A DNA stretch of 64,000 nt. It comes from Anaerobutyricum sp. (GTDB lineage Bacteria > Bacillota > Clostridia > Lachnospirales > Lachnospiraceae). Made by a program: the position numbers and the translations under genes. The notes under the pieces are model-generated. The model made no database searches. It was not told the origin of the DNA and saw only the letters and a program-made list of their open reading frames with translations. The first letter of the stretch is position 1. Every line of letters starts with the position of its first letter. Below, in pieces: positions 1 to 49,983 of this stretch. The stretch covers positions 30,705 through 94,704 of the forward strand of contig CAVHRK010000025.1 of the NCBI GenBank assembly GCA_963638365.1, in the 5' to 3' direction.

Positions 1-1049
1 TTCTCGGAGTTTTCCATAACAACATACTCTGCTGCTAACGGATCAATTCCGTAAATATACTCGGAATAGTTTGCTGCCGTGCTCTTGCCGTTGTTGAAGT
101 AAATGAGGGATCCCGAGCCGTTCGGCACCAGCATGTAGCCGTCCTCATCGGTTCCTGCGCTTCCTAAGTAACGCAGCATCTGGATACGGAAGATCGTACC
201 GCCTCCGTTTTCCTCGACTCCCTTCATGGGGATGGATACTTCCACGCCATCCTCACTAAGCCGGTACTCCAACGGAATCAGGAAGGAAATCGGCATAACA
301 CCTTCCACTCCGGAGTTTTCCATTTCACGCATATAATCGGCTGTGGTAAAGCCTGCATTTTCAAAGTACTTATTCAGCTTACGAAGCTGGGATTTTCCTT
401 TTACCGTGGATTCGAGCATTTCCATGTAGCCGTCTGCTACCGTGCTTTCCACGAATTTCTTTCCTACGAACTTCGCTTCATCTGCGGGAAGCTGATCCAT
501 CACCTGCTGCAGAGTCTCTGCACTGATGTACTGCGGCACAATACCGGTCGCACTCGAAAGATCTCCGATGGTATAAAGGAAACGGACTCCGTTGTCAATC
601 TTTTCTACGGAAAGCTGCTCTTTTGCTACGCAATAGCTGTAGGAATCGTAGGTTCCCTGTGTTCTTGAGGTATTAAAGTAATCCACAATCAACTGGGATT
701 TCATATAGTTTAGGTTCGTCTCATTGGCAATGCTGTCTTCTTCGGCATTTACGGGATTGGAGTAAACCGTTTCCCCGTTACGCTTGTCATAGAAAGCAAC
801 TTCACCGTCTGTTTCATTGATGTACAGCTTCAGATTATTGTTCTCGGCAGCCAGTACCATGCCATCCACATCACTGCTGCTTTCCTTGATGGGCGTAAAC
901 TCACTGCCCTCTTCATAATCATAGGAGCTGACGTAATCCTCGTACTTGTTATAAGAATAAAAATGTACAAAGAAGTAAACAACCCAGATCACAACGATAA
1001 GAAGGATGAGACCTAAAATGCCGTACAATAATTTTTTACTTTTCTGCAT
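1..1049 (-). CDS. Membrane-anchored extracellular protein, 3'-truncated by the window edge (first 349 codons visible); DUF5696-like by recollection only
   Basis: Absent from the ORF track because its stop lies outside the window. Hand translation from the ATG (revcomp of 1047-1049) gives MQKSKKLLYGILGLILLIVVIWVVYFFVHFYSYNKYEDYVSSYDYEEGSEF.. and I saw no in-frame stop down to position 1. A GGAGGGGGAG Shine-Dalgarno sits just upstream. There is one N-terminal hydrophobic helix. The gene starts 12 nt after the Yip1-like gene stop. Confidence 0.6.
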   Translation of the reverse strand, partial: MQKSKKLLYGILGLILLIVVIWVVYFFVHFYSYNKYEDYVSSYDYEEGSEFTPIKESSSDVDGMVLAAENNNLKLYINETDGEVAFYDKRNGETVYSNPVNAEEDSIANETNLNYMKSQLIVDYFNTSRTQGTYDSYSYCVAKEQLSVEKIDNGVRFLYTIGDLSSATGIVPQYISAETLQQVMDQLPADEAKFVGKKFVESTVADGYMEMLESTVKGKSQLRKLNKYFENAGFTTADYMREMENSGVEGVMPISFLIPLEYRLSEDGVEVSIPMKGVEENGGGTIFRIQMLRYLGSAGTDEDGYMLVPNGSGSLIYFNNGKSTAANYSEYIYGIDPLAAEYVVMENSE

Positions 1050-1061
1050 GTTCTCCCCCTC

Positions 1062-1694
1062 CTAGACTCTGTAAATCAGTTCCTGATAGATGCTGTAGAA
1101 GAAGTTGTATACCTGGCTGATGAGGTCTGCGAACAACAGCACTACGAAAATGATAATAAACATCGCAACAAATGTCAGGAATATGGTGATCAGTGTTTTA
1201 CCCAACGTGTAATTATGTACCTGCATGATTCCGATCAGAATCATGAATAAGCCATAGGCAATTCCGATTCCCAGAATCATGAAGTAAAATGCTTCTTCAT
1301 TCTGTGCCACAGCCTGGCTGACTATGGTTGCCAGATTGTAACCAAAAATCAGAGGAATCATGGCATAACCAACCGCTATGGAAATATCCTTAAGCCGCCC
1401 CTCTCCTTCCATCAGACAGGTGATGGACCAGTTGGAAATACAGAACAGGAGGTAAAGCAATAAGACCGCTACCAGTTCCGTTAATGCACTGACATCGAGC
1501 GGATCCACGTCATTCACAATGAAGCTTGCCTGAATCCGGTTGATGGAAAAGCTTAGGGAAAACAGGATGACCAGTAAAATGGCGATCGGAACGCTTCCCC
1601 GTTCCCTGTGGCGGATTTCATAATATCCGTCCGAAGGATGACTTACGGTATAGAACGCATATTTCCATTTGTCCTTGGAGAATAACTGTTTCAT
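1062..1694 (-). CDS. Yip1-domain-like polytopic membrane protein (210 aa)
   Basis: ORF track. About five hydrophobic helices, e.g. VPIAILLVILFSLSF, LVAVLLLYLLFCISNW, FYFMILGIGIAYGLFMILIGIM, LITIFLTFVAMFIIIFVVLLFA. Its ATG shares one base with the stop of the upstream NHL/TPR gene (TGATG). The family assignment is recalled, not searched. Confidence 0.7.
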   Translation of the reverse strand: MKQLFSKDKWKYAFYTVSHPSDGYYEIRHRERGSVPIAILLVILFSLSFSINRIQASFIVNDVDPLDVSALTELVAVLLLYLLFCISNWSITCLMEGEGRLKDISIAVGYAMIPLIFGYNLATIVSQAVAQNEEAFYFMILGIGIAYGLFMILIGIMQVHNYTLGKTLITIFLTFVAMFIIIFVVLLFADLISQVYNFFYSIYQELIYRV

Positions 1695-3196
1695 CAGGTA
1701 AGCCCTCCTTCCTGTTTTGCTTTCTTCTGTGCCCGGTAGGCTTTGATTTTCTTTTTCAGGAAATATTTATAAACAATTCCGAATACAACGAGTATTCCGA
1801 GAATGGTCATAAACACATTCATGTTCTCGGTAAGGATCTCATTCCGGTAACGCTTCCATGCCACGGAATAATATTTCCGGTTCATACCAAGCTCTAAGTA
1901 TTTCATCGCGGTTTTATTCTCGCCTGCGGTCAGGTAAGCCTTGCCGATACCGCTGTTTGCAAGCTCATTGTTCTCATCGAGTTTTAATACCTGTTGCCAG
2001 ATGTCAATCGCCTGTGTTTCATCTCCGTCGTATCGTAAGCCCACGGCTTCATTGATGAGGCTTCCGTACTTCGTTGCAGAAAACTTCATGATCGCTCCGT
2101 AATAGGAATCGAGAACAATCAGCTCATCATCCACCATTTCAATGGCAACCGGTGTTGTGAAGGTTCCCTCCTGTGTTCCAAGTCCTCCGAAGATATACAG
2201 AAGATTTCCTTCCTTATCGTAGGTAAAGACTCTGCCACGCTTACGGTCTAACAGGGAATAAATTCCCTTATCCCGGTAAACCACATCGGTAATTTCACTG
2301 GGTCCTCCATATTTTCCATTCGAGATCACCCAGAGGTCACCGCCGACATTTTCGTTTTCACCCTTCTGGATGACATCCTTACCCTGGGGATTCAGTCTTC
2401 TTACGGCCTGCGTTCCTTCCGAGTCAATGTTGGTTGCGTAGATGAATCCGCCCGGATCCACATCCATACCGGTAAACTCGGTCGGAATGTAAAGCTGCTG
2501 TTTGGAACGCTCTTCCTTGGTTGCGATCTTTCTCCAGAATTTTTCCCAGAGTGTAATCTTAACTTCGATTGTTCCGTAATATCCGGTAAAGCTTCCATCG
2601 CTTTCGAAAAGAAGAATTCCTTCGAATGCATTCCTGGAAATAACGTAAACACGGTCTGCGTAATCCACCGTTACCTTAATCGGGATAAAATCAAATCCTT
2701 CTTCCAGAATTTCGGACTGCGGATTATCAATGATCTTGATAAACTCTCCTTCCGGAGTAAGAACTACGATTCTCTTGTGCATGGAATCTGCTACATAAAG
2801 CGCTCCGCTTTCGGAAACACATACACCGTAAGGCTGGTCGAAACCGTCCTCCTTTCCATCATTGGAAAAGTGGTCAATGATCCGGACGGTCTGTGTCATT
2901 TCGTGATTCAGGACAACGATCCGGTTGTTCTTCGTATCTGCCACATACACCTCTCCATCGGGTGCCACGCACAAATCCTGCGGCTCCACGAAATTCGTGG
3001 TTCCCACATTCTGTCCGGTCACGGAACCGTTCGGGACATAGGCTGCCGGTGTCTCAACGACATATTCACGGTAATTGTAATTATAGGTATCATACGGAAG
3101 TTCATCCGCATAAGCATTCACGGAAACTCCGGTTGCTGCTACCACTACTGCACCAAGGAGAGCGGCTGTTCTTTTTATGATTGTTGTTTTCTTCAT
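1694..3196 (-). CDS. Secreted NHL-repeat beta-propeller protein with TPR-like segment and C-terminal membrane anchor (500 aa)
   Basis: N-terminal signal peptide (..VSVNAYA/DE). Repeated NHL-like units: PQDLCVAPDGEVYVADTKNNRIVVL, PYGVCVSESGALYVADSMHKRIVVL, VDYADRVYVISRN, PVAIEMVDDELIVLDS. A TPR-like stretch (AIDIWQQVLKLDENNELANSGIGKAYLTAGENKTAMKYLELG) follows, then a C-terminal helix VFMTILGILVVFGIVYKYF and a Lys-rich tail. Confidence 0.75.
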   Translation of the reverse strand: MKKTTIIKRTAALLGAVVVAATGVSVNAYADELPYDTYNYNYREYVVETPAAYVPNGSVTGQNVGTTNFVEPQDLCVAPDGEVYVADTKNNRIVVLNHEMTQTVRIIDHFSNDGKEDGFDQPYGVCVSESGALYVADSMHKRIVVLTPEGEFIKIIDNPQSEILEEGFDFIPIKVTVDYADRVYVISRNAFEGILLFESDGSFTGYYGTIEVKITLWEKFWRKIATKEERSKQQLYIPTEFTGMDVDPGGFIYATNIDSEGTQAVRRLNPQGKDVIQKGENENVGGDLWVISNGKYGGPSEITDVVYRDKGIYSLLDRKRGRVFTYDKEGNLLYIFGGLGTQEGTFTTPVAIEMVDDELIVLDSYYGAIMKFSATKYGSLINEAVGLRYDGDETQAIDIWQQVLKLDENNELANSGIGKAYLTAGENKTAMKYLELGMNRKYYSVAWKRYRNEILTENMNVFMTILGILVVFGIVYKYFLKKKIKAYRAQKKAKQEGGLT

Positions 3197-3212
3197 CTCG
3201 CCCCTCCTTACA

Positions 3213-4106
3213 TCAGTCTTTCATACCGGACGTTGTCATGGTTTCAAGGACATTACTCTGACACGCCAGGAAGAAGATAATCGGTACTGCCGCCACAACA
3301 AAGGTAACGGCCGCTGCTGCACCGGCTCTCGCCGTACCGCCTGCTGCGATCTGCTGCAGTGCAAACTGTAACGGCTTTAACTGCTCATCACGCAAAAACA
3401 TGCTTCCGGTATTGCCCCACATCTGCTGGAACTGGAAGATGGCCAGTGTCAGCCATGCAGGCTTTACATTCGGCATAACAATCTTCCAGAATACCTGATA
3501 TTCGGAAGCGCCATCGAGTCTCGCCGATTCCATAAGGGAGGTCGGAAGCTGCTCCATAAACTGCTTCATCAGATAAAGTCCCATACCATAGGAGCACGCA
3601 GGGAGGATCAATGCCAGATAATTGTTATTGATGCCGAGCCAGCTGATAATCATATAGTTCGGAATCTGGGTAACCGTCCAGGAAAACATCATGGATAAGA
3701 CAACCATGTTAAACAAAAGCTTCTTTCCCGGAAACTCATGCTTGGCAAGCGGATAAGCGGCCAGGGATGCTAAAATGACATGCCCCACGGTTCCGAATCC
3801 GGTAATGATAATCGTGTTTAAGATATATCTGGAAAACGGCACCCAGGAATCACTCATAATTGAGAACAGATCCGTAAAGTTTTCCAGTGTAGGGTTCCTC
3901 ACGAAAATCTTCGGTGGGAACTGATAAATTTCATCGAGCGGTTTTAAGCAGTTATTGATAATCATGACAAGCGGCAGTGCCATAAACACACCACAGATTG
4001 CCATCACAAAGAATAACAGGCTGTTTCCCGCCATGGAACGGTTTAATTTCTTCTGTCTGGGTTTGAAGAATCGATACTTTTTCTTTTTCATATAATCTTT
4101 TGCCAT
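3213..4106 (-). CDS. Carbohydrate ABC transporter permease (MalG/LplC-like)
   Basis: Six hydrophobic segments and an EAA-loop motif (ESARLDGASEYQVFWKIVMP). Abuts the preceding permease gene with 0-nt spacing. Confidence 0.9.
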   Translation of the reverse strand: MAKDYMKKKKYRFFKPRQKKLNRSMAGNSLLFFVMAICGVFMALPLVMIINNCLKPLDEIYQFPPKIFVRNPTLENFTDLFSIMSDSWVPFSRYILNTIIITGFGTVGHVILASLAAYPLAKHEFPGKKLLFNMVVLSMMFSWTVTQIPNYMIISWLGINNNYLALILPACSYGMGLYLMKQFMEQLPTSLMESARLDGASEYQVFWKIVMPNVKPAWLTLAIFQFQQMWGNTGSMFLRDEQLKPLQFALQQIAAGGTARAGAAAAVTFVVAAVPIIFFLACQSNVLETMTTSGMKD

Positions 4107-5036
4107 CTATTCTCCCACCCTTCCTAATAATTTCTGAACCAGTTTATTGGTACCAACCATGAGCAGGAAAAGAACCGTTGCAATCGCGGATGCATAACCC
4201 ATATCGAATCGGGTTGAGCCATAATCCAGAAGGTGGGTTACCACGGTTGCACCTGCATAGTTTACGGAAGGATTACCGGCAAGCTGTATGGAAATATCCG
4301 CTACCGCAAAGGACTGGGTAATCTGCATAACCGCACCGAACATCAACTGCGGTTTCATGGCCGGAAGTGTGACATACCACAATTCCTGCCAGCGGTTCTT
4401 GACGCCGTCCAGCGCAGCGGCTTCATAAAGGCTCTTATCTACCGTCTGTAAACCTGCGATAAAGGAAAGGAAACCGGTACCTAAGGAGAGCCACAACTGA
4501 ACCACGATCAGACAGGGAAGGATGTACTTGGCATCCTGCATCCACAGCTTCTGCTCGTTGATGATTCCCCATTTTAAGAGAATACCGTTTAAGTAACCGT
4601 AACGGTCACCGGATAAAATGAGGCTCCATACCATGTAGGCATTACCACAGATGGACGGTGCATAAAAGATCAGGGTAAGCACCGTACGGATCTTGCTGGA
4701 AAACTCATTGATGATCCAGGCAAATAACAGACAGAGCAGGTAGCTGATCGGTCCGGTTACTACTGCAAAGATCAGGGTGTTCTTTAAGGAAATCAGGAAA
4801 ATATCATCCTCCAAAAACAGCTTGATGTAATTGTTCCAGCCGTTAAAGGTCGGCCACTCCAGCATGTTAAAGTAGGTAAAGCTCAAACAGATGGAGGTCA
4901 GTACCGGCAGAACCGTAAAAAGAAAAAACAAAATAAAATAAGGTGCCAGCATAATGTAGCATGCTTTATTCTTTTTTATCTGGTAGCGGAGCGTTCCCTG
5001 CTTCTTTGCTACCGCCAAAGCTTCACTTGACGCCAT
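4107..5036 (-). CDS. Carbohydrate ABC transporter permease (MalF/LplB-like)
   Basis: Polytopic, with EAA-loop motif EAAALDGVKNRWQELWYVTLP. Its start abuts the stop of the 1004-aa binding-protein gene. Confidence 0.9.
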   Translation of the reverse strand: MASSEALAVAKKQGTLRYQIKKNKACYIMLAPYFILFFLFTVLPVLTSICLSFTYFNMLEWPTFNGWNNYIKLFLEDDIFLISLKNTLIFAVVTGPISYLLCLLFAWIINEFSSKIRTVLTLIFYAPSICGNAYMVWSLILSGDRYGYLNGILLKWGIINEQKLWMQDAKYILPCLIVVQLWLSLGTGFLSFIAGLQTVDKSLYEAAALDGVKNRWQELWYVTLPAMKPQLMFGAVMQITQSFAVADISIQLAGNPSVNYAGATVVTHLLDYGSTRFDMGYASAIATVLFLLMVGTNKLVQKLLGRVGE

Positions 5037-8000
5037 TTATTTGCCCTCCTTCTGCAGATCTTCCAAGGTCGCAAGACCAAATTCTTTTCGTTTATAGGTA
5101 ATCTCATCATTGATGTAAAGTACCTTATCCATCAGCTCTTCTCTCGGTGATGCGGTATCGGTATCCGTCGTTACCGTGTAGAATGCGTTGTTTACATTAC
5201 GCCAGGAATAATAACCACCCGGTACCTGCGGAATGCCCTTTACCCAGGTAAAGGCTTCGGACAGTGCTTCGTAGGTATCCACCGGCCACGGCATGTTCTC
5301 AAAGGCTTCCTGATTGGCGGTTGCCACTCTGGCCGCGGATCCCATCAGGGATTCCATTTCCCGGTCAAATAAGGTCTGTACCTCTGCGGAGGTCCACCAT
5401 TTCAAGAACTCCCAGCAGGCATCCTTTTCTTCCGTATCTGCCATGATCATGCTGGCAAGTCCGGTACATCCAACCGAATGATCCACGGTTCCGTCTTCCT
5501 TTACGGTTCCGGGAACTACGGTGAAGTCCCAGAGTCCTGCAATATCCGGAGCGGAAACCTCCAAATTGTTATACGTTGTATAATCGGCAATGATGATCGG
5601 GCACTCACCGGTACGGAAACGCTCTTCCACGCTCGTCGTCTTATCCAGACCGTAATCGGTGTAGTACTCACAGTATTCCTTAAAGGTATTGACTGCAATG
5701 TCCGAATCCAGTGCGGAGGAAATTCCTCCCTCGTTGTAATACTCTCCACCGTTCTGGTAAAGCAGCATCGCGTAAACCTGTTCGGTCGGCAGCATACCAA
5801 ATTCCATCTGATTCTTGGCAAGCACGGACATCGTGACCTTTACTTCATCCCAGGTCTGTGGGATCTCCATGCCAAGCTCTGCTAAAATATCTTTCCGGTA
5901 GAACATCACCGGGAAGGTCTGTGTTTCCGGAAGTGCATAGACCGAACCGTCAAATCCAAATGCGGTCAGTGCACTGTCATAGAATCGCTCGGAAACGCTA
6001 TCAAAATCCTCAAACTGCGTCAGATCCAGTACTGCATTACGAAGTCCGTAGTTCACCGGCGTATCGTTACCGGTATTCAAAACCGCTCCGGCAATACCGT
6101 TGGTATTTGCAACCTGGATTGCCACATCCGGCCCTTCTCCTGCCAGTTCTGCACGAAGCAGGGTGTTCATATCGACAAGCTGTACATTCACATTAATGCC
6201 ATACACACTGGTAAAGGACTCATCGATCAGAGACCGGATAACATTCGCCTGATCCCGTCCGGTTCCAACCCAGAGTGTAATGGTCGTTGCATCACTCTCT
6301 TCGGAATCCGTTGCTCCTAACGAGTTATAGTCAATAATGAAGGAATAGAACAATCTGCGGATTTCATATACAAATTTATCCCAGAAGGAATTGTGTTCGA
6401 TCTTATTTTCCTTACCAGGTGAATACACCTGAATCCGGTCGATCTGTAATGGCTGTTGGATCACCTGTGTAATCCAGGTACCGCAGGCACGTACATTCTG
6501 CTTATAGGTGGATACGACCTTTACAAAACGTTCTTCATCGGCAATCAGATAATCGAGCTGATCCCTCATGGTGATCAGTACAGTTTCCTTATCGGAGGTC
6601 CGTCCGGAAGCTGCCCGGAGATCCAGGATCGCCTGATCGAGCTGATCCCTTACGGCCGTCATTTCTGCACTCAGTCCGGGAAGTGAGCTTTCAATCTGGT
6701 AGTCACGGTAGGTATCGGGTGATACACCGGTGATACGGATGACCTTACGGTAAATGGCATTCAACTGGGAAACACAATCCTGTACGCTGGAAATAACTTC
6801 GGAGAAATCACCAAGTACCACTTCCATTCGTAAAGTATGGGTTCCCTTTTCCAGATAAAAGTCATAGGGGTTTCCGTCCGCATCGGAGAGTACATCGCAT
6901 CTCCACTGGGAATCGTAGGTAAACCCGTAATCTTCCATTTCTTTAAAAGGAACTTCCCCATCAATCGTAATCTTTCGTGATACATAAATACCACGCATGA
7001 AGTTCTGTTTATCAAACAGGGAAATATTGACGTAACCGCTTTCCGGCACTTCAAATTCCCATTCCATCCACTGTCCTGCATCCGACCAGCTCTCTCCGCC
7101 GATCGTGTTGTTCAGAAGTTCCTTCGCGCTTGCCGGATAAACCGCCGGCGAAGACTGATCCTGCTTGGGATAAAGCATCTGGGAAGAGGTCTTCGTCACA
7201 TTCTCTGCCTGAATGGTAAGGTTCACATCAGTCGTTGCCTTAACCCCTTCTGCTTCCCACTGTTTCTTTACTTCTTCGTAGGGCTTCACTTCCTCTGAAT
7301 TCTTAAGATATAACTTATGAATCAGCATCGGCTCTCTCTGGGAGTTCATGGAAATCGTATGCGTGCCCTTCGTGAAATACACACATAACGGTGTGGTGAT
7401 GTAACCATTGCTGTCATACAGGCTTGCGGTTACCCATTCCGGAATTTCCACGGAAGTCGGCTTCATGTCATTATTCTGATTGTCCTTCCTCCAGGCGATG
7501 TCATATACTCCGTTTGCGAAACTCTCCTGCGCCACATCGGTAGACCAGACTCTCGAAAACTCAATCAGGGAAAGCTCTCCATAAGGGAGTTCTCCATCAA
7601 TAAAGAAGCTTCTCTGAATTTCGGAATTCTTACCTTCTACCGGATAATATTCAACCTGAAGTTCATACATGCCTTCTGCCGGAACATCCACTTCAAATTC
7701 AATATAGCCGTTTTCACTGGTCAGCACACTGTCTCCCGGCATTCCTTCATAATCGGAATAAATCTCCGGTGTCTTTTCACGGTCGCCTTCCATATAACTG
7801 ATGTAATCCGAAGCATTGATCTCAATCGTATCCTTCGGATAAGCAGCTCCTGCATGCTCATTCAGATACTCCATGAAACCGGGGATTTCATCGGCTACAG
7901 AATATGTACTGACAATTTCACGCGCTTCCTGTTGTGTTAAAGATGCTTCTGCTGCAGAAACATTCAGACTGCCAAGCTGCAGCGACGTTGCAATCTCCGC

Positions 8001-8051
8001 CACTGTAATCAGCAGCGCGATGCATTTTTTCTTAGTTGCTCGAAATTTCAT
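5037..8051 (-). CDS. Giant extracellular solute-binding protein (1004 aa): signal peptide, two tandem beta-sandwich/CBM-like modules, helical linker, C-terminal ABC sugar-binding domain
   Basis: Signal peptide ending ..LNVSA/AEA, with no lipobox Cys. There is an internal duplication: GYIEFEVDVPAEGMYELQVEYY..RSFFIDGELPYGEL..FTKGTHTISM versus QWMEWEFEVPESGYVNISLF..RKITIDGEVPFKEM..LEKGTHTLRM. From about residue 590 the C-terminal part has the typical family-1 SBP character (ITLWVGTGRDQ.., ..LPETQTFPVMFYRKD..). Confidence 0.85.
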   Translation of the reverse strand: MKFRATKKKCIALLITVAEIATSLQLGSLNVSAAEASLTQQEAREIVSTYSVADEIPGFMEYLNEHAGAAYPKDTIEINASDYISYMEGDREKTPEIYSDYEGMPGDSVLTSENGYIEFEVDVPAEGMYELQVEYYPVEGKNSEIQRSFFIDGELPYGELSLIEFSRVWSTDVAQESFANGVYDIAWRKDNQNNDMKPTSVEIPEWVTASLYDSNGYITTPLCVYFTKGTHTISMNSQREPMLIHKLYLKNSEEVKPYEEVKKQWEAEGVKATTDVNLTIQAENVTKTSSQMLYPKQDQSSPAVYPASAKELLNNTIGGESWSDAGQWMEWEFEVPESGYVNISLFDKQNFMRGIYVSRKITIDGEVPFKEMEDYGFTYDSQWRCDVLSDADGNPYDFYLEKGTHTLRMEVVLGDFSEVISSVQDCVSQLNAIYRKVIRITGVSPDTYRDYQIESSLPGLSAEMTAVRDQLDQAILDLRAASGRTSDKETVLITMRDQLDYLIADEERFVKVVSTYKQNVRACGTWITQVIQQPLQIDRIQVYSPGKENKIEHNSFWDKFVYEIRRLFYSFIIDYNSLGATDSEESDATTITLWVGTGRDQANVIRSLIDESFTSVYGINVNVQLVDMNTLLRAELAGEGPDVAIQVANTNGIAGAVLNTGNDTPVNYGLRNAVLDLTQFEDFDSVSERFYDSALTAFGFDGSVYALPETQTFPVMFYRKDILAELGMEIPQTWDEVKVTMSVLAKNQMEFGMLPTEQVYAMLLYQNGGEYYNEGGISSALDSDIAVNTFKEYCEYYTDYGLDKTTSVEERFRTGECPIIIADYTTYNNLEVSAPDIAGLWDFTVVPGTVKEDGTVDHSVGCTGLASMIMADTEEKDACWEFLKWWTSAEVQTLFDREMESLMGSAARVATANQEAFENMPWPVDTYEALSEAFTWVKGIPQVPGGYYSWRNVNNAFYTVTTDTDTASPREELMDKVLYINDEITYKRKEFGLATLEDLQKEGK

Positions 8052-8090
8052 ACCCTCTCATTACCTCCATGCATTAATGGGAATCTCTCG

Positions 8091-8795
8091 TTACTCATAG
8101 TACCATGCATCTTCACCCGGAGCGGGTGCAGGCATATATTTCCGAAGTGCTTTTTCCATCAGGAATGTGCTGGCGAAGCAAAATGCTCCCGGCCAGATAA
8201 AAATCATTGGGATTGGCAGGTAACGGAACCAGACAAACACAAGTAGTAAAAGTCCTGCCAGCAATATGGCTGTATACGGCAGGAACCGTACCGCCATAAC
8301 AAAAGAAAGCTTTACCATGGAAGAGATCTTCATGGTAAACCGTGACATCACGGGAAAGAGATAAATCAGAATGGCCCCTGTTATTACCAGAAGGCCTATG
8401 TAAAACTTCTGTAAGAATAACCCTGTCTCCTCCCCCGAAACTGCAGCTATATTCCACAAATACCAGATCAGTGAAATCCAGATCCCTGCCCCGACCGTAA
8501 TAAGGCTTCCTTTTACAAAGGTCCTTTTAAAGGAGGCCCAGTATTCCAGAAGCGGATAGCTCCGGTCCCTTCGTATGCTTTTCATCATCGCATAATAAAA
8601 CGAAGTGACGGCTGCGCCAATGGTAAACACCGGCAGACAGGAAATCAGAAATACAATATTTAAGATAATCACCCAGCCGGCCTTCGTCATGTAATACATC
8701 AATGGACTCTCCGGTGCAAACGGCTTAGGTTTCTTTTTGATTTTATAGGGATCGTTTTCTTCCTTGCGGCGGTCCCTTTTCTCTTCGTGCATCAT
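8091..8795 (-). CDS. DUF624/YesL-like integral membrane protein
   Basis: The pattern ..AGWVIILNIVFLISCLPVFTIGAAVTSFYYAMMKSIRRD.. is typical of YesL-type proteins found in Firmicute sugar ABC loci. Family name recalled, not searched. Confidence 0.7.
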   Translation of the reverse strand: MMHEEKRDRRKEENDPYKIKKKPKPFAPESPLMYYMTKAGWVIILNIVFLISCLPVFTIGAAVTSFYYAMMKSIRRDRSYPLLEYWASFKRTFVKGSLITVGAGIWISLIWYLWNIAAVSGEETGLFLQKFYIGLLVITGAILIYLFPVMSRFTMKISSMVKLSFVMAVRFLPYTAILLAGLLLLVFVWFRYLPIPMIFIWPGAFCFASTFLMEKALRKYMPAPAPGEDAWYYE

Positions 8796-9920
8796 CTAAA
8801 AGCCCTCCCGGATGGGATAGGTTTTCAGATCCGGAAGATCTTCTAACGTAATCACATCTTCATCGTTGTATGCTTTTTTCAGCATCTCTTCCTCGGTATA
8901 CGTTTCATCCAGTGTGATGATCGACATACTCTTTACAACGAACTCACCCTGCCAGGTACACCACATGCCCCACATGGCTCCGTCTCTCTTGGCAAGCTCC
9001 GGATCAAATACACAGCCATTCTCCGTCATGTAAACTAGCTTATGTCCGGCACTGTAATTCGTTGCCGCATTCAGATATTTGGAAATCTGGGAGGTATATA
9101 CATGCTCTCCCGGATAAATGTCCTCTCCGATAATATCGACGTACTCATCTCCCGGATACCAGTCCTTGTCCTGACCGTTCCATACCCAGATCAGATTATT
9201 CAGTCCATATTCCTTCGTAAACTTCTCATACATGGCAATGTAAAGCTTCTTATAACTCTCCGGCCCTGCTGCGCCCCACCAGAACCATCCTCCGCTTGCT
9301 TCATGCAAGGGGCGGAACAGGATCGGCACATGGGCATCCTTAAGAATGGTCAGCTGCTGTGCAATCACATCCATATCACTCATTAAAAGCTCGTAGCCTT
9401 CCTCATCTTCCCCGTTCATGATTTTCGCAAGATCGAGGTTCGTATTCGATGTATAAAAGCTTCCTCCCCAGTCACCGGTAATGTAAGGCTCCGGTGCCGT
9501 CCAGTGCCAGTGCATGGCAACAATCTGTCCATTCTCCCATGCCGTCTGTGCATATTCGGTAGTATAACCCGTGGTTCCGTGTGCCACCCTCGACGGGGAA
9601 TAATCCATAAAGTCCATGGCAATGACCGCCGGAAGCTTTCCTGTTGTTTTCTTAATCGCCTGAATTTCCTTTCCGTAAGGTCCCTGGTCGCAGGTCTGTC
9701 CGGACAGGATCTTCGTCCCGTAAATATCACACAAATAACTGTATAATGCCCTCGCTTCGTCCGAAGCTTCCGGATTACACAGTGGTGTATCAATCTGATA
9801 AATGCTTTGATTCTCCGTTTCGGAATTTGTCATTTCTGTTCCCTTATTACCGCATCCTGCCAGTACCATTCCCAACACTCCCATCAGGATTGTTCCTACG
9901 AGAACTTTCTTGCTGCTCAT
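8796..9920 (-). CDS. Glycoside hydrolase family 26 lipoprotein (putative beta-mannanase)
   Basis: Lipobox MVLAGC. GH26-like motifs AMHWHW, FRPLHEASGGWFWWG (acid/base Glu context) and LVYMTENG (nucleophile context). First gene of the operon. Confidence 0.8.
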   Translation of the reverse strand: MSSKKVLVGTILMGVLGMVLAGCGNKGTEMTNSETENQSIYQIDTPLCNPEASDEARALYSYLCDIYGTKILSGQTCDQGPYGKEIQAIKKTTGKLPAVIAMDFMDYSPSRVAHGTTGYTTEYAQTAWENGQIVAMHWHWTAPEPYITGDWGGSFYTSNTNLDLAKIMNGEDEEGYELLMSDMDVIAQQLTILKDAHVPILFRPLHEASGGWFWWGAAGPESYKKLYIAMYEKFTKEYGLNNLIWVWNGQDKDWYPGDEYVDIIGEDIYPGEHVYTSQISKYLNAATNYSAGHKLVYMTENGCVFDPELAKRDGAMWGMWCTWQGEFVVKSMSIITLDETYTEEEMLKKAYNDEDVITLEDLPDLKTYPIREGF

Positions 9921-9975: not shown

Positions 9976-10125
9976 CTTTTGTTATACTTAAAAATGTACT
10001 ATCATTAACTCTTCTATACACCATTCATAATTGCTAATAATATTGTTTTCTTGCGCTTTTTGTAAATTTTGTACAGTTACACAAAATCAGCCCCCCCTTT
10101 TTGTGAATTATTACAGAAGATATAG

Positions 10126-10171
10126 ATAAAAAAAGAGTTATGTAAAACATAATGCATGTTTTACATAACTC
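10126..10171 (-). terminator. Rho-independent terminator after the decarboxylase operon
   Basis: Perfect 16-bp inverted repeat GAGTTATGTAAAACAT / ATGTTTTACATAACTC (10135-10150 and 10156-10171). On the minus strand it is followed by TTTTTTTAT. Confidence 0.75.
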
Positions 10172-35160: not shown

Positions 35161-38100
35161 ATGGAAAACAAGCAATATACACTCGGCATTGATATCGGTT
35201 CAACCACCGTTAAGATTGCCATTCTGGATAGTGCACACAACATCCTTTTTTCCGACTACAAGAGACATTTCGCAAACATCAGGGAGACACTTCATTCCCT
35301 TCTTAGTGATGCATACAGTCAATTAGGAAATATCAGGCTCCACCCCATGATCACAGGATCCGGTGGATTAACCCTTGCCAACCATCTGAAGGTTCCCTTT
35401 GTCCAGGAAGTTATTTCGGTTGCCACCGCATTAAAGGAAATTGCACCGAAAACGGACGTTGCGATTGAATTAGGTGGTGAGGATGCCAAGATAATTTATT
35501 TTGAAGGCGGTAACGTGGAACAGCGTATGAACGGAATCTGTGCCGGTGGTACAGGCTCCTTTATCGACCAGATGGCTTCCCTGTTACAGACCGATGCAGC
35601 CGGATTAAACGAATATGCCAAGGGCTACAAGTCCCTCTACACCATTGCGGCCCGCTGTGGTGTATTTGCCAAGTCCGACATCCAGCCCCTCATCAACGAA
35701 GGGGCCACCAAGGAAGACCTTGCGGCTTCCATTTTCCAGGCGGTTGTAAACCAGACCATCAGTGGTCTTGCCTGCGGCAAGCCGATCCGCGGCCACATTG
35801 CCTTTTTAGGCGGTCCGCTCCACTTCCTGTCCGAATTAAAGGCTGCTTTTATCCGCACCTTAAAGCTGGACGAGGAGCATACCATCGAAACCGAACATTC
35901 CCATTTATTTGCAGCGATCGGTTCTGCATTAAATGCCAAGGAAGAAGTTTCTTATACCATGGAAGAAATGGTACAGAAACTCTCTTCGGATATCAAAATG
36001 GAATTTGAAGTAGAACGTATGGATCCTCTCTTTGCAAGCAAAGAAGAATACGATGCGTTCTGTAAGCGCCATGAAACCCATCATGTAAAAACTGCCGATT
36101 TATCCACGTATCACGGCAACTGCTATCTGGGTATCGACGCCGGAAGTACGACTACGAAGATTGCACTTGTCGGAGAAGACGGATCCTTACTTTATTCCTT
36201 CTACAGCAGTAACGACGGCAGTCCCCTAAAGACGGCCATCCGTTCCATGAAGGAAATTTCCGAACAGCTCCCTCCCGATGTACATGTCGTCCGCTCCTGC
36301 TCTACCGGATACGGCGAACAGCTTATGAAAGCTGCTTTCCTTCTGGATGACGGTGAGGTCGAGACCGTTGCCCATTATTACGCAGCGGCATTCTTCGATC
36401 CTTCCGTGGACTGTATTCTGGACATCGGCGGTCAGGATATGAAGTGTATCAAGATCAAGAATCAGACCGTAGACAGCGTGCAGCTTAACGAAGCCTGCTC
36501 CTCCGGATGCGGTTCCTTTATTGAAACCTTTGCCAAATCGTTAAATTACAGTGTCCATGATTTTGCAAAGGCCGCGCTCTTTGCGGAGCACCCGATTGAC
36601 CTGGGTACCCGTTGTACCGTATTCATGAATTCCAAGGTAAAGCAGGCACAGAAGGAAGGTGCCAGCGTCCCGGATATTTCCGCAGGACTTGCCTACTCCG
36701 TCATCAAGAATGCCTTATTTAAGGTGATCAAGGTATCCGATGCTTCTGCTCTCGGCAAAAACATCGTAGTGCAGGGTGGAACCTTCTATAACGATGCCGT
36801 TTTACGAAGCTTTGAGAAGATTGCCGGCTGTGAAGCCATCCGTCCGGACATTGCCGGAATCATGGGTGCGTTCGGTGCCGCCCTCATCGCAAGGGAACGT
36901 TACAGTGCAGATTACGAAACGACCATGCTGCCCTTTGACAAGATTCTGTCCCTGCAGTTTGAAACCAACATGGCAAAATGTAAGGGTTGTACCAACAACT
37001 GCCGTCTGACCATTAACAAATTCTCCGGCGGCCGTCAGTACATTTCCGGCAACCGCTGCGAACGTGGTCTTGGCAAGCAGAAAAATGAGAACAATGTTCC
37101 CAATCTGTTTGATTATAAATTAAAGAGAGTCTTCGGCTATGAACCGCTTTCTGCCGAAGAAGCTACACGTGGCACCGTCGGTATTCCACGTGTCCTTAAC
37201 ATGTACGAAAATTATCCGTTCTGGGCAACCTTCTTTAAGGAACTTGGCTACCGTGTGGTTCTCTCTCCGGTATCCAACCGTAAAATTTACGAGCTTGGCA
37301 TCGAGTCCATCCCGAGTGAATCCGAATGTTACCCGGCAAAGTTAGCGCACGGACACGTGAGCTGGCTCATTAACCAGAAGGTCGATTTCATTTTCTATCC
37401 TGCTCTCTTTTATGAGCGTAATGAATTTGAGGACGCCAACAATCACTACAACTGCCCGATTGTTACCTCTTATTCCGAGAATATCAAGAATAACGTGGAA
37501 GAAATCGAACGCGGTGAAGTCATTCTCCGGAATCCGTTCATGTCCTTCCGCGACCTGAAAACCATCACCGAAGCACTGGTTCGTGAATTTAAAGAGCTTC
37601 CTTCCAAAGAAGTCATTGCCGCCAGTGAAAAGGCATGGAACGAATTAAGCGCTGCCCGTACCGACATGCAGAAAAAGGGCGAGGAAACCTTACAGTACTT
37701 AAAAGAGACCGGCAAGCGCGGTATCGTTTTAGCCGGAAGACCTTATCATATTGATCCGGAAATCAACCATGGTATTCCGGAGCTGATTACCTCTTATGAT
37801 ATTGCTGTTTTAACCGAGGATTCCGTTTCCCATCTGGCGAAGCCGGAACGCCCTTTAATTGTTTCCGACCAGTGGATGTACCACTCCCGTCTCTACGCAG
37901 CCGCAAGCTATGTAAAGACCGTGGATAACCTCGATCTGATCCAGTTAAATTCCTTCGGATGTGGTCTGGATGCGGTTACGACCGATCAGGTAAATGATAT
38001 TCTGACAGGCTCGGATAAGATTTATACCTGTCTGAAAATTGATGAGGTAAATAACCTTGGCGCTGCCAGAATCCGTATCCGTTCCCTGCTCTCTGCGATC

Positions 38101-39408
38101 CGTGTCAGGGAAAAGCTGAACAAACAGCGTACGATCCGCTCCAGTGCCATCACGAAGGTGCCCTTTACCGAAGAAATGCGTAAGGACTACACGATTCTTG
38201 CCCCGCAGATGTCTCCGATCCACTTTGACGTCATTGAGGCTGCATTCCGCGCCTGCGGCTATAACTTCGAAATTCTTGGAAACGATAACCGCCGGGCGGT
38301 GGATGTCGGATTAAAATATGTAAACAACGATGCCTGCTACCCTTCTTTGATGGTGGTTGGCCAGATTATGGATGCTTTGCTTTCCGGTAAATATGATCTC
38401 AACAAGGTAGCCGTCATTATGACGCAGACAGGTGGTGGATGCCGTGCGACCAACTATGTCGGTTTTATCCGCCGTGCCCTGGAGAAAGCCGGTATGCCGC
38501 AGATCCCGGTAATTTCCCTGAATCTGGGCGGTATTGAAACAAACCCCGGTTTCCACTTAAATGCCGAAATGCTGATGCGTGTTGCCTACGCTGCCATCTT
38601 TGGTGATATCTTCATGCGCTGTGTATACCGTATGCGTCCTTATGAGCAGACGAAAGGCTCTGTAGAAGAAGTGCATCAGAAGTGGTTAAAGAAATGCCGT
38701 GAATTCGTTTCCAGAAAGCATATGAGTTTTGCAGTCTTTAACAGGATGTGTCAGCAGATTGTGGAAGACTTTGATGCGATTCCGATTACCAATGAGGTGA
38801 AGCCCCGCGTCGGTATCGTAGGTGAGATTCTGGTCAAATATGCACCGGCTGCCAACAATTACCTTGTAGATCTCCTGGAGTCCGAAGGGGCCGAAGCCGT
38901 TGTTCCGGATCTGGTAGACTTCATGCTCTACTGCTTCTACAACCAGATTTATAAGGCCGATTATCTGGGCATGAGCAAGAAGACCTCGATGATCTCCCGC
39001 TTCGGTATCCGTGGTATTGAATTCCTTCGCGGAAGTGCACGCCGTGCCTTTGAAAAGAGTACCCACTTTACGCCTCCGTGCAGCATTTACGAAACCGTAG
39101 AAAATGCAAAAACGATTGTAAATATTGGTAACCAGACCGGTGAAGGCTGGTTCCTGACCGGTGAAATGATTGAACTGATCCACAGCGGTGTCAACAACAT
39201 CGTCTGCACCCAGCCGTTTGCCTGCCTGCCTAACCATGTCGTAGGAAAAGGTGTGATCAAAGAGCTTCGCAAGCACTATCCGCTCAGCAACATTGTTGCC
39301 ATCGACTACGATCCCGGTGCCAGTGAAGTAAACCAGTTAAACCGTATTAAACTGATGCTCTCTACCGCTCAGAAAAATCTTCACAAGAAGGAGGAAGAAG
39401 CTTCATGA
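35161..39408 (+). CDS. Fusion of two BcrAD/BadFG (HgdC-type) activase ATPase domains with DUF2229 and 2-hydroxyacyl-CoA-dehydratase (HgdB-like) domains (1415 aa); candidate fused PlsA/PlsR-type enzyme
   Basis: Two ASKHA phosphate-1 motifs ([15 protein letters not shown] at about residue 8; [15 protein letters not shown] at about residue 323). A Cys cluster [30 protein letters not shown]. The C-terminal roughly 750 aa resemble what I recall of CoA-enzyme-activase DUF2229 plus the dehydratase D-component. Confidence 0.8.
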
Positions 39409-45872: not shown

Positions 45873-48137
45873 TTATCTGCTTTTCCAGATATCCCGCTCA
45901 TACTCTTCAATCGTCCGGTCGGAAGAAAAGTATCCGGCTTTTGCAATGTTCACAAGCATCATCTTCGCGAATTTCTCACGGTCGTTGTAGCAGGCATAGG
46001 CCTCTTCCTTCTTTGCACAGTACGCTTTAAAGTCAAGGAGTGTCATAAACCAGTCCTTATTTAAAAGTTCCTTCTGTAAGCGCGTAAGGTTCTCCTCCTG
46101 CCCGATCGCAAGGAGTTCTTTCGATGTAAGGAAATCAACTGCTTCCTTAATTTCCGGATCCCTGTCATAAAAGTCCTTCGATACATAATCGGCTTTTTCA
46201 TAATGCGCAATGACTTCTTCACTGGATGCGCCGAAAATAAAGATATTATCATCTCCGACAAGCTCATGGATTTCTACATTCGCACCGTCTTCGGTTCCGA
46301 GCGTTACCGCACCGTTTAACATGAACTTCATGTTGCCGGTTCCGCTCGCCTCCTTGGAAGCCAGCGAAATCTGCTCGGAAAGATCGGTTGCCGGGATCAG
46401 CTTCTCTGCCTTGGTCACATTATAGTTTTCGACCATAACCACCTTTAGGTACGGGCTTACCTCCGGATCTGCATTCACAAGCTCCTGCAGGCACAGGATC
46501 AGATGAATGATGTCCTTCGCAATCACATATGCCGGTGCTGCCTTGGCGCCAAAGATCACGGTAACCGGGGTTTCCGGTTTCTTTCCTGCCTTGATTTCCA
46601 GATATTTATGTATCACAAACAGCGCGTTCATCTGCTGCCGCTTGTATTCATGCAGACGCTTGATCTGGGTATCGAAAATACTGTCCGGATTTAAAGTGAT
46701 GTTCTGTGTTTCCTTTAAGTAAGCACACAGCTCCTTCTTATTTTCCATCTTCACATCCAGGAGCTTTTGAAGGAATGCCGGATCATCCTGATAAGCCAGG
46801 AGCTTTGTTAACTCCATGGCATCCTTCCGGTATCCTCTTCCGATCGTCTCATCAAGCAGAGCGGTAAGTCTGGGATTACAGTGTAAGAGCCAGCGCCGGA
46901 ACGTGATGCCGTTTGTCTTATTGTTAAACTTCTCCGGATATAGCTCATAAAAGGGATGAAGCTCAGTCTTTTTCAAAATATCCGTGTGCAGGGATGCGAC
47001 ACCGTTTACCGAAAAGCCGTAATGAATATCCAGGTGTGCCATATGCACGGTGTCATTGCGGTCGATGATCACTACCTTTTCATCATCGAATTTACGGCGT
47101 ACCCTGTCGTCAAGAACCTCAATGATCGGAACGAGCTGCGGCACAACCTTATTCAGATAGGCAATCGGCCACTTTTCCAGTGCTTCTGCCAGAATCGTAT
47201 GATTCGTATAGGCACAGGTCTTCGATACAATGTCAATAGCTTCGTCCATCGAAATGCCCTGCTCCATTAAAAGCCGGATCAGCTCCGGAATAATCATGGT
47301 CGGATGCGTATCGTTAATCTGGATCACCGCATAGTCTGACAGGTCATGCAGGTTTGATCCCCGCTTCACGCTTTCGTCCAGAATGAGCTGTGCACCGCTG
47401 CTTACCATAAAATACTGCTGGTAAATACGAAGCTGTCTTCCCTCTTCATCGGAATCGTCCGGATAAAGAAACAGCGTCAGATTCTTTGCAATATCCGTTT
47501 TATCAAAGGAAATGCCATCCTGCACCAGAGTCTCATCCACAGAATCCAGATCAAATAAATGAAGCTTATTGGTATGGTTTTCATAACCGGTCACATCAAT
47601 ATCATACATTCTGGCATTCACTTTGAGATCGCCAAAGCTTACCGGATAAACCACCTCGGTACGGTTTAACCAGCTTTGCGGCTCCATCCAGGGATTCGGG
47701 GTTTCCTTCTGCAGGTTCTTTTCAAACTCCTGCTTAAAAAGTCCCAGATGATAATTCAATCCGATTCCATCTCCGTTTAGACCTAAGGTTGCCATGGAAT
47801 CAAGGAAGCAGGCTGCCAGTCTTCCCAGACCACCGTTCCCAAGTGAAGGCTCCGGCTCGATCTCTTCGATTGCGGCAAGACTCTTTCCGCTCTCCGAAAG
47901 AATGGTCTTTACCTCGTCATAGATTCCTAAGTTAATCAGATTGTTGGAAAGAAGCTTGCCAATCAGGAACTCTGCGGAAACATAGTAGATCTTCTTTCCT
48001 TTCTGTTCACTCTGCGCATGCTCTCTTTCCTTTGCCATCTCTTTCACAAGCTGAAGGAGCATAACATAAATTTCTCTTTCACTTGCTTCCGGAATGGACT
48101 TTCCAAGTTTTTGTTCCAAAAATTCTTTGTTCAACAT
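45873..48137 (-). CDS. glgP: Glycogen/maltodextrin phosphorylase (GT35)
   Basis: 754 aa, with the PLP-site context [14 protein letters not shown]. Confidence 0.95.
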
Positions 48138-48161
48138 CTCATGTTCTCCTTTACGGGGGAA

Positions 48162-49004
48162 TTATCCTTTTACGGCTCCGGATGCCACACCTTTAATAAT
48201 ATATTTCTGTCCGGACAGATAAACAATAATAATCGGGATAATGGTTAACATAATACTTGCCATCATCGGTCCCATTTCCACTCTTCCGTAGCTTCCGCGG
48301 AAGTACTGGATAAGCATCGGGATCGTCTTATATTTCTTGATATCCAGCACCAGTGTCGGAAGCAGATAATCGTTCCATACCCACATGGCTTCCAGAATTC
48401 CTACAGAAATCATGGTCGGTGCCAGCATATGCATATCAATCTTAAAGAACGTCTGGATGGGGTTACAGCCATCGATCAGGGCAGCCTCTTCTACTTCAAG
48501 TGGAATGGACTTCACAAATCCGCAGAACATGAATACCGCAAGTCCTGCTCCGAATCCAAGATAGATCACCCAGATATTCCAGGGCGTGTTCAGGTGAAGC
48601 TTATCTGCGGTCTGTGATAAGGTGAACATGACCATCTGGAAAGGAACTACCATCGAAAAGACAAACAGGAAATAAAGTACCTTCGAAAGGATGCCCTTTA
48701 CGCGGGTGATGTACCACGCACACATGGAACAGAAAAGCAGAATCGCTGCTACGGAGGTAATCGTAATAAATAAGCTGTAGCCTAAGCTGTTCAAAAAGCC
48801 TTTGGCCTCAATGGCATTGATATAGTTTTCCAAACCTGCAAAGGTTTCTGCGGTAGGAAGCTGAAAAACGCTTCCGGTGCTGATGGCAGATTCCTTCTTC
48901 AGGGAATTAATCAAAATCATAAATACAGGATAAATCCACAACAGGGAGAGAATCGTCAAAATCACAACTAATATGGTATTTCCGATTTTTTTCTTTGTAT
49001 TCAT
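48162..49004 (-). CDS. Sugar ABC transporter permease (MalG-like)
   Basis: EAA loop EEAALIDGCNPIQTFFKIDM; six TM segments. Confidence 0.9.
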   Translation of the reverse strand: MNTKKKIGNTILVVILTILSLLWIYPVFMILINSLKKESAISTGSVFQLPTAETFAGLENYINAIEAKGFLNSLGYSLFITITSVAAILLFCSMCAWYITRVKGILSKVLYFLFVFSMVVPFQMVMFTLSQTADKLHLNTPWNIWVIYLGFGAGLAVFMFCGFVKSIPLEVEEAALIDGCNPIQTFFKIDMHMLAPTMISVGILEAMWVWNDYLLPTLVLDIKKYKTIPMLIQYFRGSYGRVEMGPMMASIMLTIIPIIIVYLSGQKYIIKGVASGAVKG

Positions 49005-49855: not shown

Positions 49856-49880
49856 AACATAACCTCCATCATTACCCAGT

Positions 49881-49977
49881 CACTAAATTTGCACTTCGCT
49901 CTGCTTGTGCTCATTAAGTGTCCGGGTACCGTTCTCACTAAGCTCAGACTTCTCCTTCGGCTCGTCTTCACTAAGTG
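49881..49977. repeat. Four copies of CA(C/T)TAA(G/A) in the binding-protein/permease spacer
   Basis: cactaaa at 49881, cattaagtgtcc at 49912, cactaagct at 49936, cactaagtgttc at 49969. CACTAAGTG is itself a near-palindrome. Confidence 0.4.
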
Positions 49978-49983
49978 TTCTAC

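Follow-up and report, generated by a model that had tools for sequence, protein, structure and literature searches.

We analysed a stretch of 64,000 nucleotides (nt) of Anaerobutyricum sp. DNA (contig CAVHRK010000025.1, positions 30,705 to 94,704 of the forward strand; hereafter the window), in which positions 1-9920 are occupied by eight genes that all lie on the minus strand and are read in one direction. In order of reading they encode a GH26 lipoprotein, a DUF624 membrane protein, a giant substrate-binding protein (SBP), two permeases of an ATP-binding cassette (ABC) importer (PermA and PermB), and three envelope proteins named here after their domains, NHL/TPR, Yip1 and DUF5696 (Table 1). 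These last three genes, the trio, and their relation to the ABC importer genes around them are our main subject. The junctions from GH26 to DUF5696 measure 0, 39, 0, 0, 16, -1 and 12 nt, respectively. Strong Shine-Dalgarno sequences stand ahead of the NHL, Yip1 and DUF5696 starts, and the NHL stop and Yip1 start share an ATGA overlap.

Table 1. Predicted genes and signals of the eight-gene cluster, in the direction of transcription (window positions; aa, amino acids; E, Pfam E-value unless another profile is named)
Feature	Coordinates	Strand	Supporting detail
Intrinsic terminator of the oxaloacetate-decarboxylase-type upstream gene	10135..10171	-	17-bp stem, then TTTTTTT
Candidate sigma-70-like promoter in the AT-rich leader before GH26	10037..10066	-	TTTACA, 18 nt, TATTAT; 10/12 consensus matches only
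GH26 endo-beta-1,4-mannanase-like lipoprotein, lipobox LAGC	8796-9920	-	E 1.5e-64
DUF624/MusI-like polytopic membrane protein	8091-8795	-	DUF624 E 2.8e-12; MusI_fam E 3e-25
Giant SBP, 1004 aa	5037-8051	-	SBP_bac_8/1 at residues 605-894
MalF-type ABC permease, permA	4107-5036	-	BPD_transp_1; motif EAAALDG...LP
MalG-type ABC permease, permB	3213-4106	-	BPD_transp_1; motif ESARLDGA
NHL/TPR type-I membrane protein	1694-3196	-	NHL E 2e-16; TPR weak
Yip1-family five-helix membrane protein	1062-1694	-	Yip1 E 4.8e-15
DUF5696 protein, first 349 codons of ~860 aa, runs off the window edge	1-1049	-	E 4.6e-29

Within the cluster no intergenic terminator was found, and the terminator-like matches that do occur there are weak and all fall inside coding sequence. 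The single convincing terminator is that of the upstream gene; behind it lie the OAD_beta and HMGL-like/PYC_OADA genes, and as a predicted signal it marks the upstream boundary of the operon. The promoter-like site in the leader is present also in the orthologous locus L008, which comes from the same species as the window (98% identity), and an Rfam search found no Rfam element, RNA leader or riboswitch. The original prediction, made by a model from the letters of the window alone, had described eight co-directional genes with junctions of -1 to 39 nt, had assigned their domains (GH26, DUF624, SBP, permeases, NHL/TPR, Yip1 and DUF5696) and had taken one transcript without an internal terminator as the simplest reading. 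The open reading frame (ORF) coordinates and the Pfam matches agree with the first two of these claims throughout. The third also stands: because the junctions are tight and conserved, no intergenic terminator is found and translational coupling recurs across 80 species, one operon is the simplest reading of the sequence.

Since the DUF5696 gene is cut by the window edge, we read the remainder of the operon from related contigs. The exact NHL protein occurs on three public contigs (L001 among them), and a full-length DUF5696 protein of 860 aa (P0121), 95% identical to the part in the window, is encoded on another (L004). Long human-gut contigs (L005-7) and the L008 genome locus display the complete operon, in the order GH26 (with CBM35), DUF624, giant SBP, permA, permB, NHL/TPR, Yip1, DUF5696, permC, permD, a lipoprotein with three CBM65 modules, a 481-aa lipoprotein SBP (the small SBP), a second DUF624 gene and LacI. 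No intergenic terminator was seen between GH26 and LacI in the 18.6 kb of L008. Given that related loci carry permC and permD, the small SBP and LacI, a second ABC importer and a regulator would therefore sit just left of the window, and positions 1-9920 would hold the first eight genes of a beta-mannan utilisation operon of 13-14 genes and ~18.6 kb. Taken jointly with the cassette model described below, we consider this reading probable.

Of the parts of a CUT1-like importer, the locus provides the SBP and the two permeases and no cognate ATPase. No ATPase gene was found in the operon, whether in the window or in any extended locus, and none was found elsewhere in the window among the ten large ORFs scanned, the other ORFs lying outside that scan. 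Firmicutes CUT1 sugar importers commonly share an MsmX/MsmK-type ATPase encoded elsewhere, and the missing ATPase is therefore expected. The original prediction had seen neither an ATPase nor a regulator; its first half holds for the whole operon, and its second half does not, since in orthologous contigs the operon ends with a LacI gene.

We next examined how widely the arrangement is conserved. A scan of one genome per GTDB species, using a 12-sequence NHL alignment and signature patterns, located a relative of the NHL protein in at least 591 species genomes. Synteny was examined in the best 80 of these (65-98% NHL identity), which belong to Lachnospiraceae, Roseburia, Eubacterium, Acetatifactor and Marvinbryantia. 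The order from GH26 to the small SBP is the same in essentially all 80 loci, as far as the contigs reach. The junctions are conserved as well: NHL and Yip1 are separated by -1, -4 or 0 nt in 77 of 83 loci, DUF5696 and permC by -4 or -1 nt in 52 of 73, Yip1 and DUF5696 by ~12 nt, and permB and NHL by 13-16 nt in most loci. Because the order is kept in essentially all 80 species genomes and the junctions are conserved, the gene arrangement is, by this comparison, far beyond chance.

The same core is found in six distant carriers, whose NHL proteins are 33-47% identical to that of the window: Paenibacillus spongiae, Evansella caseinilytica, Variimorphobacter, Mahella, Neobacillus mesonae and a metagenome-assembled genome of Tissierellaceae. 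All six encode a giant SBP (957-997 aa), two permeases, NHL and Yip1 (separate or fused), DUF5696 (852-865 aa) and two further permeases, with the small SBP on either side of this core. The flanking glycoside hydrolases (GHs) vary among GH26, GH113, GH130, GH2 beta-mannosidase-like, GH9, GH20, GH43 and GH35, and the flanking regulators among LacI, GntR and YesM/YesN. Consequently, the core appears to be a substrate-independent module, around which enzymes and regulators are exchanged. Conservation of gene order, on which the original prediction had made its reading depend, is thus observed in essentially all 80 species and in the six distant genomes.

The prediction had also asked how often the trio co-occurs with an SBP of more than 900 aa. 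We counted neighbours in 80 diverse loci from metagenomes, for which a fused NHL~Yip1 protein was the seed and which we annotated with phmmer; each count uses only loci whose contig could accommodate the gene concerned. NHL~Yip1 is followed directly by DUF5696 in 60 of 60 loci, and DUF5696 by two permeases in 51 of 52. On the other side, a permease pair lies directly upstream of NHL~Yip1 in 42 of 57 loci and the complete giant SBP-permease-permease unit in 35 of 46. In a few loci (L111, L120, L128 and L133) the giant SBP gene is located downstream, after PermCD, and 8 of the 46 have no giant SBP gene within +/-10 kb. NHL~Yip1, DUF5696, PermC and PermD form the near-invariant kernel. The difference between 51/52 and 35/46 indicates that the closest partner of the trio is the second permease pair, to the left of the window, and not the giant SBP.

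Deep synteny and gene fusion together support a functional wiring of the three genes to ABC import. The opposite reading, that the trio are unrelated passengers which happen to share an operon with transporters, is exceedingly unlikely: the adjacencies of 60/60 and 51/52 hold across sequences down to 22% identity, genes overlap at their start and stop codons, about half of the family has NHL and Yip1 in one chain, and the cassette is kept while flanking GHs and regulators are swapped, occurring alone in some loci. One group of loci with such a bare seven-gene cassette between housekeeping genes (L148, L154, L156, L162, L167, L169 and L172) forms a clade with a giant SBP of 1017-1132 aa, a fused NHL~Yip1 and a DUF5696 protein enlarged to 1008-1217 aa; it carries no small SBP, nor any other GH or regulator within 5-10 kb. 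Elsewhere the cassette is multiplied. L161 (FZPS01000069.1) has a tandem arrangement of DUF5696-perm-perm-sbp followed by NHL~Yip1-DUF5696-perm-perm-sbp, and Paenibacillus sp. LHD-117 encodes one fused and one unfused NHL protein (P0412, P0470). More than one copy per contig or genome suggests a paralogous expansion like that of polysaccharide utilisation loci (PULs).

The two importers differ in their binding proteins. In the giant SBP the family-1 domain is confined to residues 605-894 (SBP_bac_8, E 6.9e-21; SBP_bac_1, E 3.2e-18), and residues 582-973 resemble sugar SBPs, with Lin1841 as the best PDB match (E 2.5e-17). The first 580 residues are kept at 33-51% identity in all distant loci and comprise two CBM6/35/Golvesin_C-like beta-sandwich repeats followed by a helical region; the Pfam signals of these repeats are weak (Golvesin_C in 7 of 8 members, plus CBM_35 and GH115_C), and the first 571 residues have no match in the PDB. 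The giant SBP lacks a lipobox throughout (in the window and in orthologues L008 and L088-L093) and has a signal peptide or hydrophobic N-terminal anchor only, whereas GH26, the CBM65 protein of L008 and every small SBP examined have one. Both window permeases contain PF00528 and EAA loop motifs and match UgpA/UgpE, MalF/MalG and GlcT/GlcU-like proteins. We rejected a recent duplication as the origin of the two transporters, since permA/permC and permB/permD are 23% identical and the SBPs are essentially unrelated.

From the missing lipobox one may argue, by inference only, that a protein tethers the giant SBP, the TPR platform for example, and this bears on the original prediction's model, in which the trio forms an extracytoplasmic capture or processing complex that feeds the giant SBP and PermA/PermB. 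That the trio serves an importer agrees with the synteny and the fusions. Feeding the giant SBP is not the best-supported wiring, because the second permease pair is retained in 51/52 loci and an upstream giant SBP in 35/46 only. We regard the model as unlikely. It would account well for the NHL gene starting 13-16 nt after permB in most loci, for the giant SBP-permease-permease unit upstream in essentially all 80 Lachnospiraceae, in 6/6 distant carriers and in most metagenome loci, and for a giant SBP that may need a protein tether, for which the TPR region could serve. However, the kernel persists where the giant SBP gene is downstream or absent, and 80/80 matches reach the C-terminal end of the query, so that the TPR region is apparently retained there too. 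Moreover, DUF5696 is translationally coupled to PermC, not to PermA/B.

The NHL/TPR protein has a cleavable N-terminal signal peptide, and its AlphaFold2 (AF2) model (predicted local distance difference test, pLDDT, 85) places a six-bladed propeller at residues 38-374, TPR-like helices at 376-457 and a long transmembrane (TM) helix at 459-496, which is followed by a basic tail. The family is recognised by the signatures LYIPTEF and GRIFTYDxEG, by an N-terminal PYxxYxY strand, by an inserted helical segment (FW..IAT.EQR...LYIPTEF) and by the TPR/juxtamembrane motif YS.A...YR.E. The next protein scores 56.3 bits with the Yip1 profile (PF04893; cut-off 28.6), aligning to positions 3-172 of its 173, and has five hydrophobic/TM segments. 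Among 1.84 billion cluster representatives, we recovered 1852 relatives of the NHL protein at E <= 1e-30, and in 74 of the 150 best family representatives NHL/TPR and Yip1 form a single chain. The fusion recurs in 34 of 116 proteins from a profile search, including many named Paenibacillus 'YIP1 family proteins'. The topology of the fusion fits: a signal peptide, an ectodomain, one TM helix with a basic cytoplasmic tail and then the five Yip1 helices. Because they are fused in about half of the family and the topology agrees, NHL/TPR and Yip1 are, by this Rosetta-stone argument, really one protein. Five propeller relatives of 2400-7400 aa with 19-46 NHL-matching stretches (P0247, P0259, P0284, P0292 and P0377) are probably unrelated surface proteins.

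In Foldseek searches, the best matches of the propeller were the NHL domains of TRIM71, Lin41, Thin, Brat and TRIM2/3, with target-normalised TM-scores of 0.75-0.83; designed 'Pizza' propellers and the extracellular sensor of PknD (1rwl) were also matched. The modelled propeller thus resembles binding or sensor NHL domains, not enzymes. The idea that it is itself a cryptic enzyme, a lactonase or lyase, draws on an SGL (SMP-30/gluconolactonase) match of 31.3 bits against a cut-off of 26.3, on names that databases give to such proteins (for example 'gluconolactonase' or 'sugar lactone lactonase YvrE'), and on virginiamycin B lyase, which appears at rank 36 and below among the structural matches. 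The SGL match, however, spans residues 75-160 and 86 of 246 profile positions and overlaps generic NHL repeats, which explains the database label. The top 35 structural matches are non-enzymatic NHL or designed propellers, and no GH, polysaccharide lyase (PL) or lactonase occurs in the top 50, which leaves the propeller as a GH or PL unsupported. The family motifs also fall in the inserted helical segment and the TPR/juxtamembrane region and not at an obvious metal site. We therefore consider an enzymatic propeller very improbable.

A second alternative for the NHL/TPR-Yip1 protein is that it is primarily a sensor or regulatory module, whose propeller binds glycan or liganded SBP and gates transport or signals to regulators. 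In P0272 (L094 6481-8703; L095 2935-5157) the same ectodomain and TM helix are fused to a YesM-type histidine kinase (PF06580 and HATPase_c), and its gene stands directly after an SBP-permease-permease unit and before an AraC-type response regulator. The best structural matches are ligand-binding NHL domains, and the PknD sensor of M. tuberculosis is among the matches. Such a role is a serious alternative, though rather unlikely to be the primary one. The kinase fusion was seen in 1 of 10 long representatives that were domain-scanned, compared to Yip1 in 74 of 150; Yip1 has no known output domain; no pocket for a ligand was recognised; and conventional regulators (LacI, GntR or YesM/N) are already present at the loci. 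The P0272 contig also has a second perm-perm-NHL unit (399 aa), and the locus bears GH123, GHL6-like, melibiase and GH130 genes.

In the full-length protein (P0121) a single signal-anchor helix at the N-terminus precedes the DUF5696 domain (E 1.4e-194). Its AF2 model consists of a beta-sandwich, a (beta/alpha)8 barrel at about residues 470-765 and a C-terminal beta-sandwich. The best Foldseek matches were the GH129 enzymes 5opq (ZgGH129; E 2.5e-22, target-normalised TM-score 0.66) and 5wzn (NagBb; E 2.9e-17), a 3,6-anhydro-D-galactosidase and an alpha-N-acetylgalactosaminidase, respectively. They were followed by GH101 endo-alpha-N-acetylgalactosaminidases, GH36, GH31 and GH97 (down to E 1e-8). 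Sequence identity to the GH129/GH101-type structures is 8-14%. TIM-barrel enzymes build their pocket after the beta-strands, on the C-terminal face, and by our own reading of secondary structure most of the conserved barrel positions of DUF5696 lie just after predicted beta-strands, E754 preceding one. Across 73 aligned members (22-73% identity), E754, R665 and N738 are conserved at 100%, N692 at 97%, D336 at 96%, D/E473 at 95% and D656 at 93%. Judged from the model, DUF5696 is probably a glycosidase of a new family with a GH129/GH101/GH36-like fold, and catalysis is likely. The prediction that the trio contains a cryptic carbohydrate-active enzyme is accordingly plausible for DUF5696, whose modelled fold is GH-like, and not for the propeller, whose matches are non-enzymatic.

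Alternatively, DUF5696 could be a GH-like protein without catalytic activity that binds glycan or acts as a receptor and, anchored in the membrane, passes substrate on to PermCD in place of an SBP or as its partner. The carboxylate pair expected of an active glycosidase varies: position 565 is Asp in 74% of members, position 716 in 58% and position 648 in 42%. D648 lies at a strand end, and we rejected it as a firm call for the nucleophile because it is Asp in 31 of 73 sequences only. Nor does DUF5696 have sequence similarity to any active GH family, and in the bare-cassette clade, which has no small SBP, PermCD is left without an obvious dedicated binding protein. The invariant E754, R665 and N738, together with D336, D656, N692 and D/E473, are nevertheless no less compatible with an active site than with a binding site, all top structural neighbours are active glycosidases, and misalignment in the low-confidence loops may mask a conserved pair. 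A dead enzyme is possible, though we think it doubtful.

The likely substrate of this locus is indicated by its first gene. All top PDB matches of the GH26 protein are GH26 endo-mannanases (best 3zm8, E 3e-67), and the protein is endo-beta-1,4-mannanase-like by sequence. Together with CBM35 and CBM65, this points to a mannan/glucomannan-type substrate. In the window strain GH26 has 374 aa, compared to 505 aa in its 97-98% identical orthologues (L001 and L008) and a median of 514 aa across 69 related loci. The window strain has cleanly lost 131 residues in frame (30-160 of the L008 protein), straight after the lipoprotein signal, where relatives bear CBM35.

The second gene encodes a DUF624 member that is MusI-like only, with 89.2 bits to the NCBIfam MusI profile (NF052431), below the subfamily cut-off of 160; it probably serves the first importer as an accessory subunit. 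In the Lachnospiraceae operon each of the two transporters has a DUF624/MusI-like gene beside it (the second at 18817-19452 of L008), and the two proteins are 35% identical to each other. DUF624 is absent from the deeply conserved core of distant taxa.

Altogether, we favour a mechanism in which the operon is built round a widespread Bacillota cassette (a giant SBP with carbohydrate-binding modules (CBMs), PermA/B, NHL/TPR, Yip1, DUF5696, PermC/D and usually a small lipoprotein SBP) that works as an enzyme-coupled double importer. The lipoprotein GH26 would cleave mannan at the cell surface, and the giant SBP and lipoprotein SBP would bind the resulting oligosaccharides. DUF5696, anchored by its single N-terminal helix, would trim these oligosaccharides beside the transporter as a (beta/alpha)8 glycosidase. 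NHL/TPR and Yip1 would form a single six-helix membrane subunit that docks on the permeases, by analogy to YknW in YknWXYZ, and would present an extracellular propeller/TPR platform that organises, or senses the state of, the enzyme-SBP-transporter assembly. The products would be imported by the two unrelated CUT1 permease pairs, both powered by a shared ATPase encoded elsewhere, and the LacI repressor at the operon end would control expression.

Several observations weigh against this mechanism, which we nonetheless hold to be probable. The single transcript is deduced solely from gene spacing and the lack of terminator motifs. The DUF5696 model is of moderate confidence (pLDDT 67), with 232 residues below 50, including barrel loops, and its obvious carboxylate pair is not invariant. 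A search of the DUF5696 profile against all PDB sequences returned no GH match and spurious PPR matches only, and a Pfam scan of the full-length protein found DUF5696 and no GH family. YknW, the precedent, belongs to an ABC exporter of another type. Of the diverse loci, 8/46 lack the giant SBP, and the bare-cassette clade lacks the small SBP; consequently a single, fixed stoichiometric machine is not established.

In a more far-reaching version, the seven-gene core would be one supercomplex, a Gram-positive counterpart of the Bacteroidetes 'utilisome', in which DUF5696, as the first member of a new GH family, and the NHL-TPR-Yip1 scaffold couple two importers and hold the giant SBP, which has no lipid anchor, at the membrane. 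This version is speculative, and we would not expect it to be correct. If it were, surface hydrolysis, capture and uptake would be mechanically linked, in a cassette re-tooled for many glycans across Bacillota, among them abundant Lachnospiraceae of the human gut and the rumen.

We compared the cassette to known systems. The Roseburia intestinalis beta-mannan locus is a Gram-positive PUL (gpPUL) with a CUT1-family ABC importer. Like gpPULs, our locus combines a surface GH26 mannanase, a family-1 SBP, a MalF/MalG-type permease pair and LacI, with no ATPase gene. Unlike them, it combines, in a fixed order, two permease pairs unrelated to each other (23% identity) with two SBPs, of which one is ~1000 aa long and has CBM-like modules and no lipid anchor; NHL/TPR, Yip1 and DUF5696 are located between the transporters, and the core recurs with quite different GH sets. 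Bacteroidetes Sus-like systems (SusCDEFG) employ TonB-dependent SusC/SusD. They share the logic of co-encoding a surface enzyme, glycan-binding proteins and a transporter and of diversifying by substrate, by analogy only: parts and envelope are entirely different, there is no homology, and ABC importers take the place of SusC/SusD. With GH26 and ABC genes in the window, and LacI at the operon end in L008 and many others, the locus is a gpPUL under the definition quoted in PMC12827396.

For individual components, partial likenesses are found. The Yip1-family protein YknW is an accessory subunit of Bacillus YknWXYZ that is required for, or modulates, transporter assembly (PMC4887032). Both are Yip1-family polytopic membrane proteins encoded with a Firmicutes ABC transporter, a likeness by family; YknYZ is a MacB-type exporter with a membrane-fusion protein, in contrast to the binding-protein-dependent importer here, and YknW has no NHL/TPR ectodomain. 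In Corynebacterium, the maltose importer MusEFGKI depends on MusI, a membrane component whose function is unknown (PMC13008276). That system too is a CUT1 sugar importer with an extra membrane protein, which the DUF624 proteins here resemble, but MusI/DUF624 is distinct from Yip1 and NHL and stands outside the deeply conserved core. PknD likewise displays a six-bladed NHL propeller extracellularly on a single TM helix; it couples to a Ser/Thr kinase, whereas the partner here is Yip1, or a histidine kinase in P0272. With GH129, GH101 and clan GH-D-like glycosidases, the DUF5696 model shares its three-domain architecture and fold. Unlike them, DUF5696 has an N-terminal membrane anchor and is genetically locked to ABC permeases, and its catalytic residues are not assignable from the alignment.

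Searchable literature yielded nothing on DUF5696/PF18952, or on Yip1 plus NHL, in connection with ABC importers, mannan or gpPULs, and no characterised importer with the trio was found, as the original prediction had held. The two-transporter architecture with NHL-Yip1 and DUF5696 is not described in any paper we found, and its transport parts are ordinary CUT1.

Two other regions of the window were noted. A second, conventional sugar ABC locus occupies 45873-56291 (-), with a phosphorylase of the glycogen/maltodextrin type (45873-48137), two ORFs of permease size (48162-49855) and an SBP (50034-51422), and with a histidine kinase of the YesM type (52903-54711) and a response regulator of the AraC type (54705-56291), all on the minus strand. 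At 35161-39408 (+), a 1415-aa ORF carries two BcrAD/BadFG ATPase domains and DUF2229, is of the CoA-enzyme activase type and is unrelated to the cassette.

Gram-positive bacteria of gut, rumen and soil take up fragments of plant glycans mainly through ABC importers, and the textbook importer consists of an SBP, two permeases and two ATPase subunits. What the cassette adds, in fixed order, is a trio of conserved envelope proteins and a second transporter. It occurs in at least 591 species genomes and many metagenomes, and it is present in lineages of butyrate producers such as Roseburia, Eubacterium and Acetatifactor. Should DUF5696 prove to be an enzyme, it would found a new CAZy family that current annotation of carbohydrate-active enzymes misses. 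If NHL-Yip1 is a transporter subunit, bacterial Yip1 proteins would gain a testable role. Either way, the cassette is a genomic marker for Gram-positive glycan-uptake loci.

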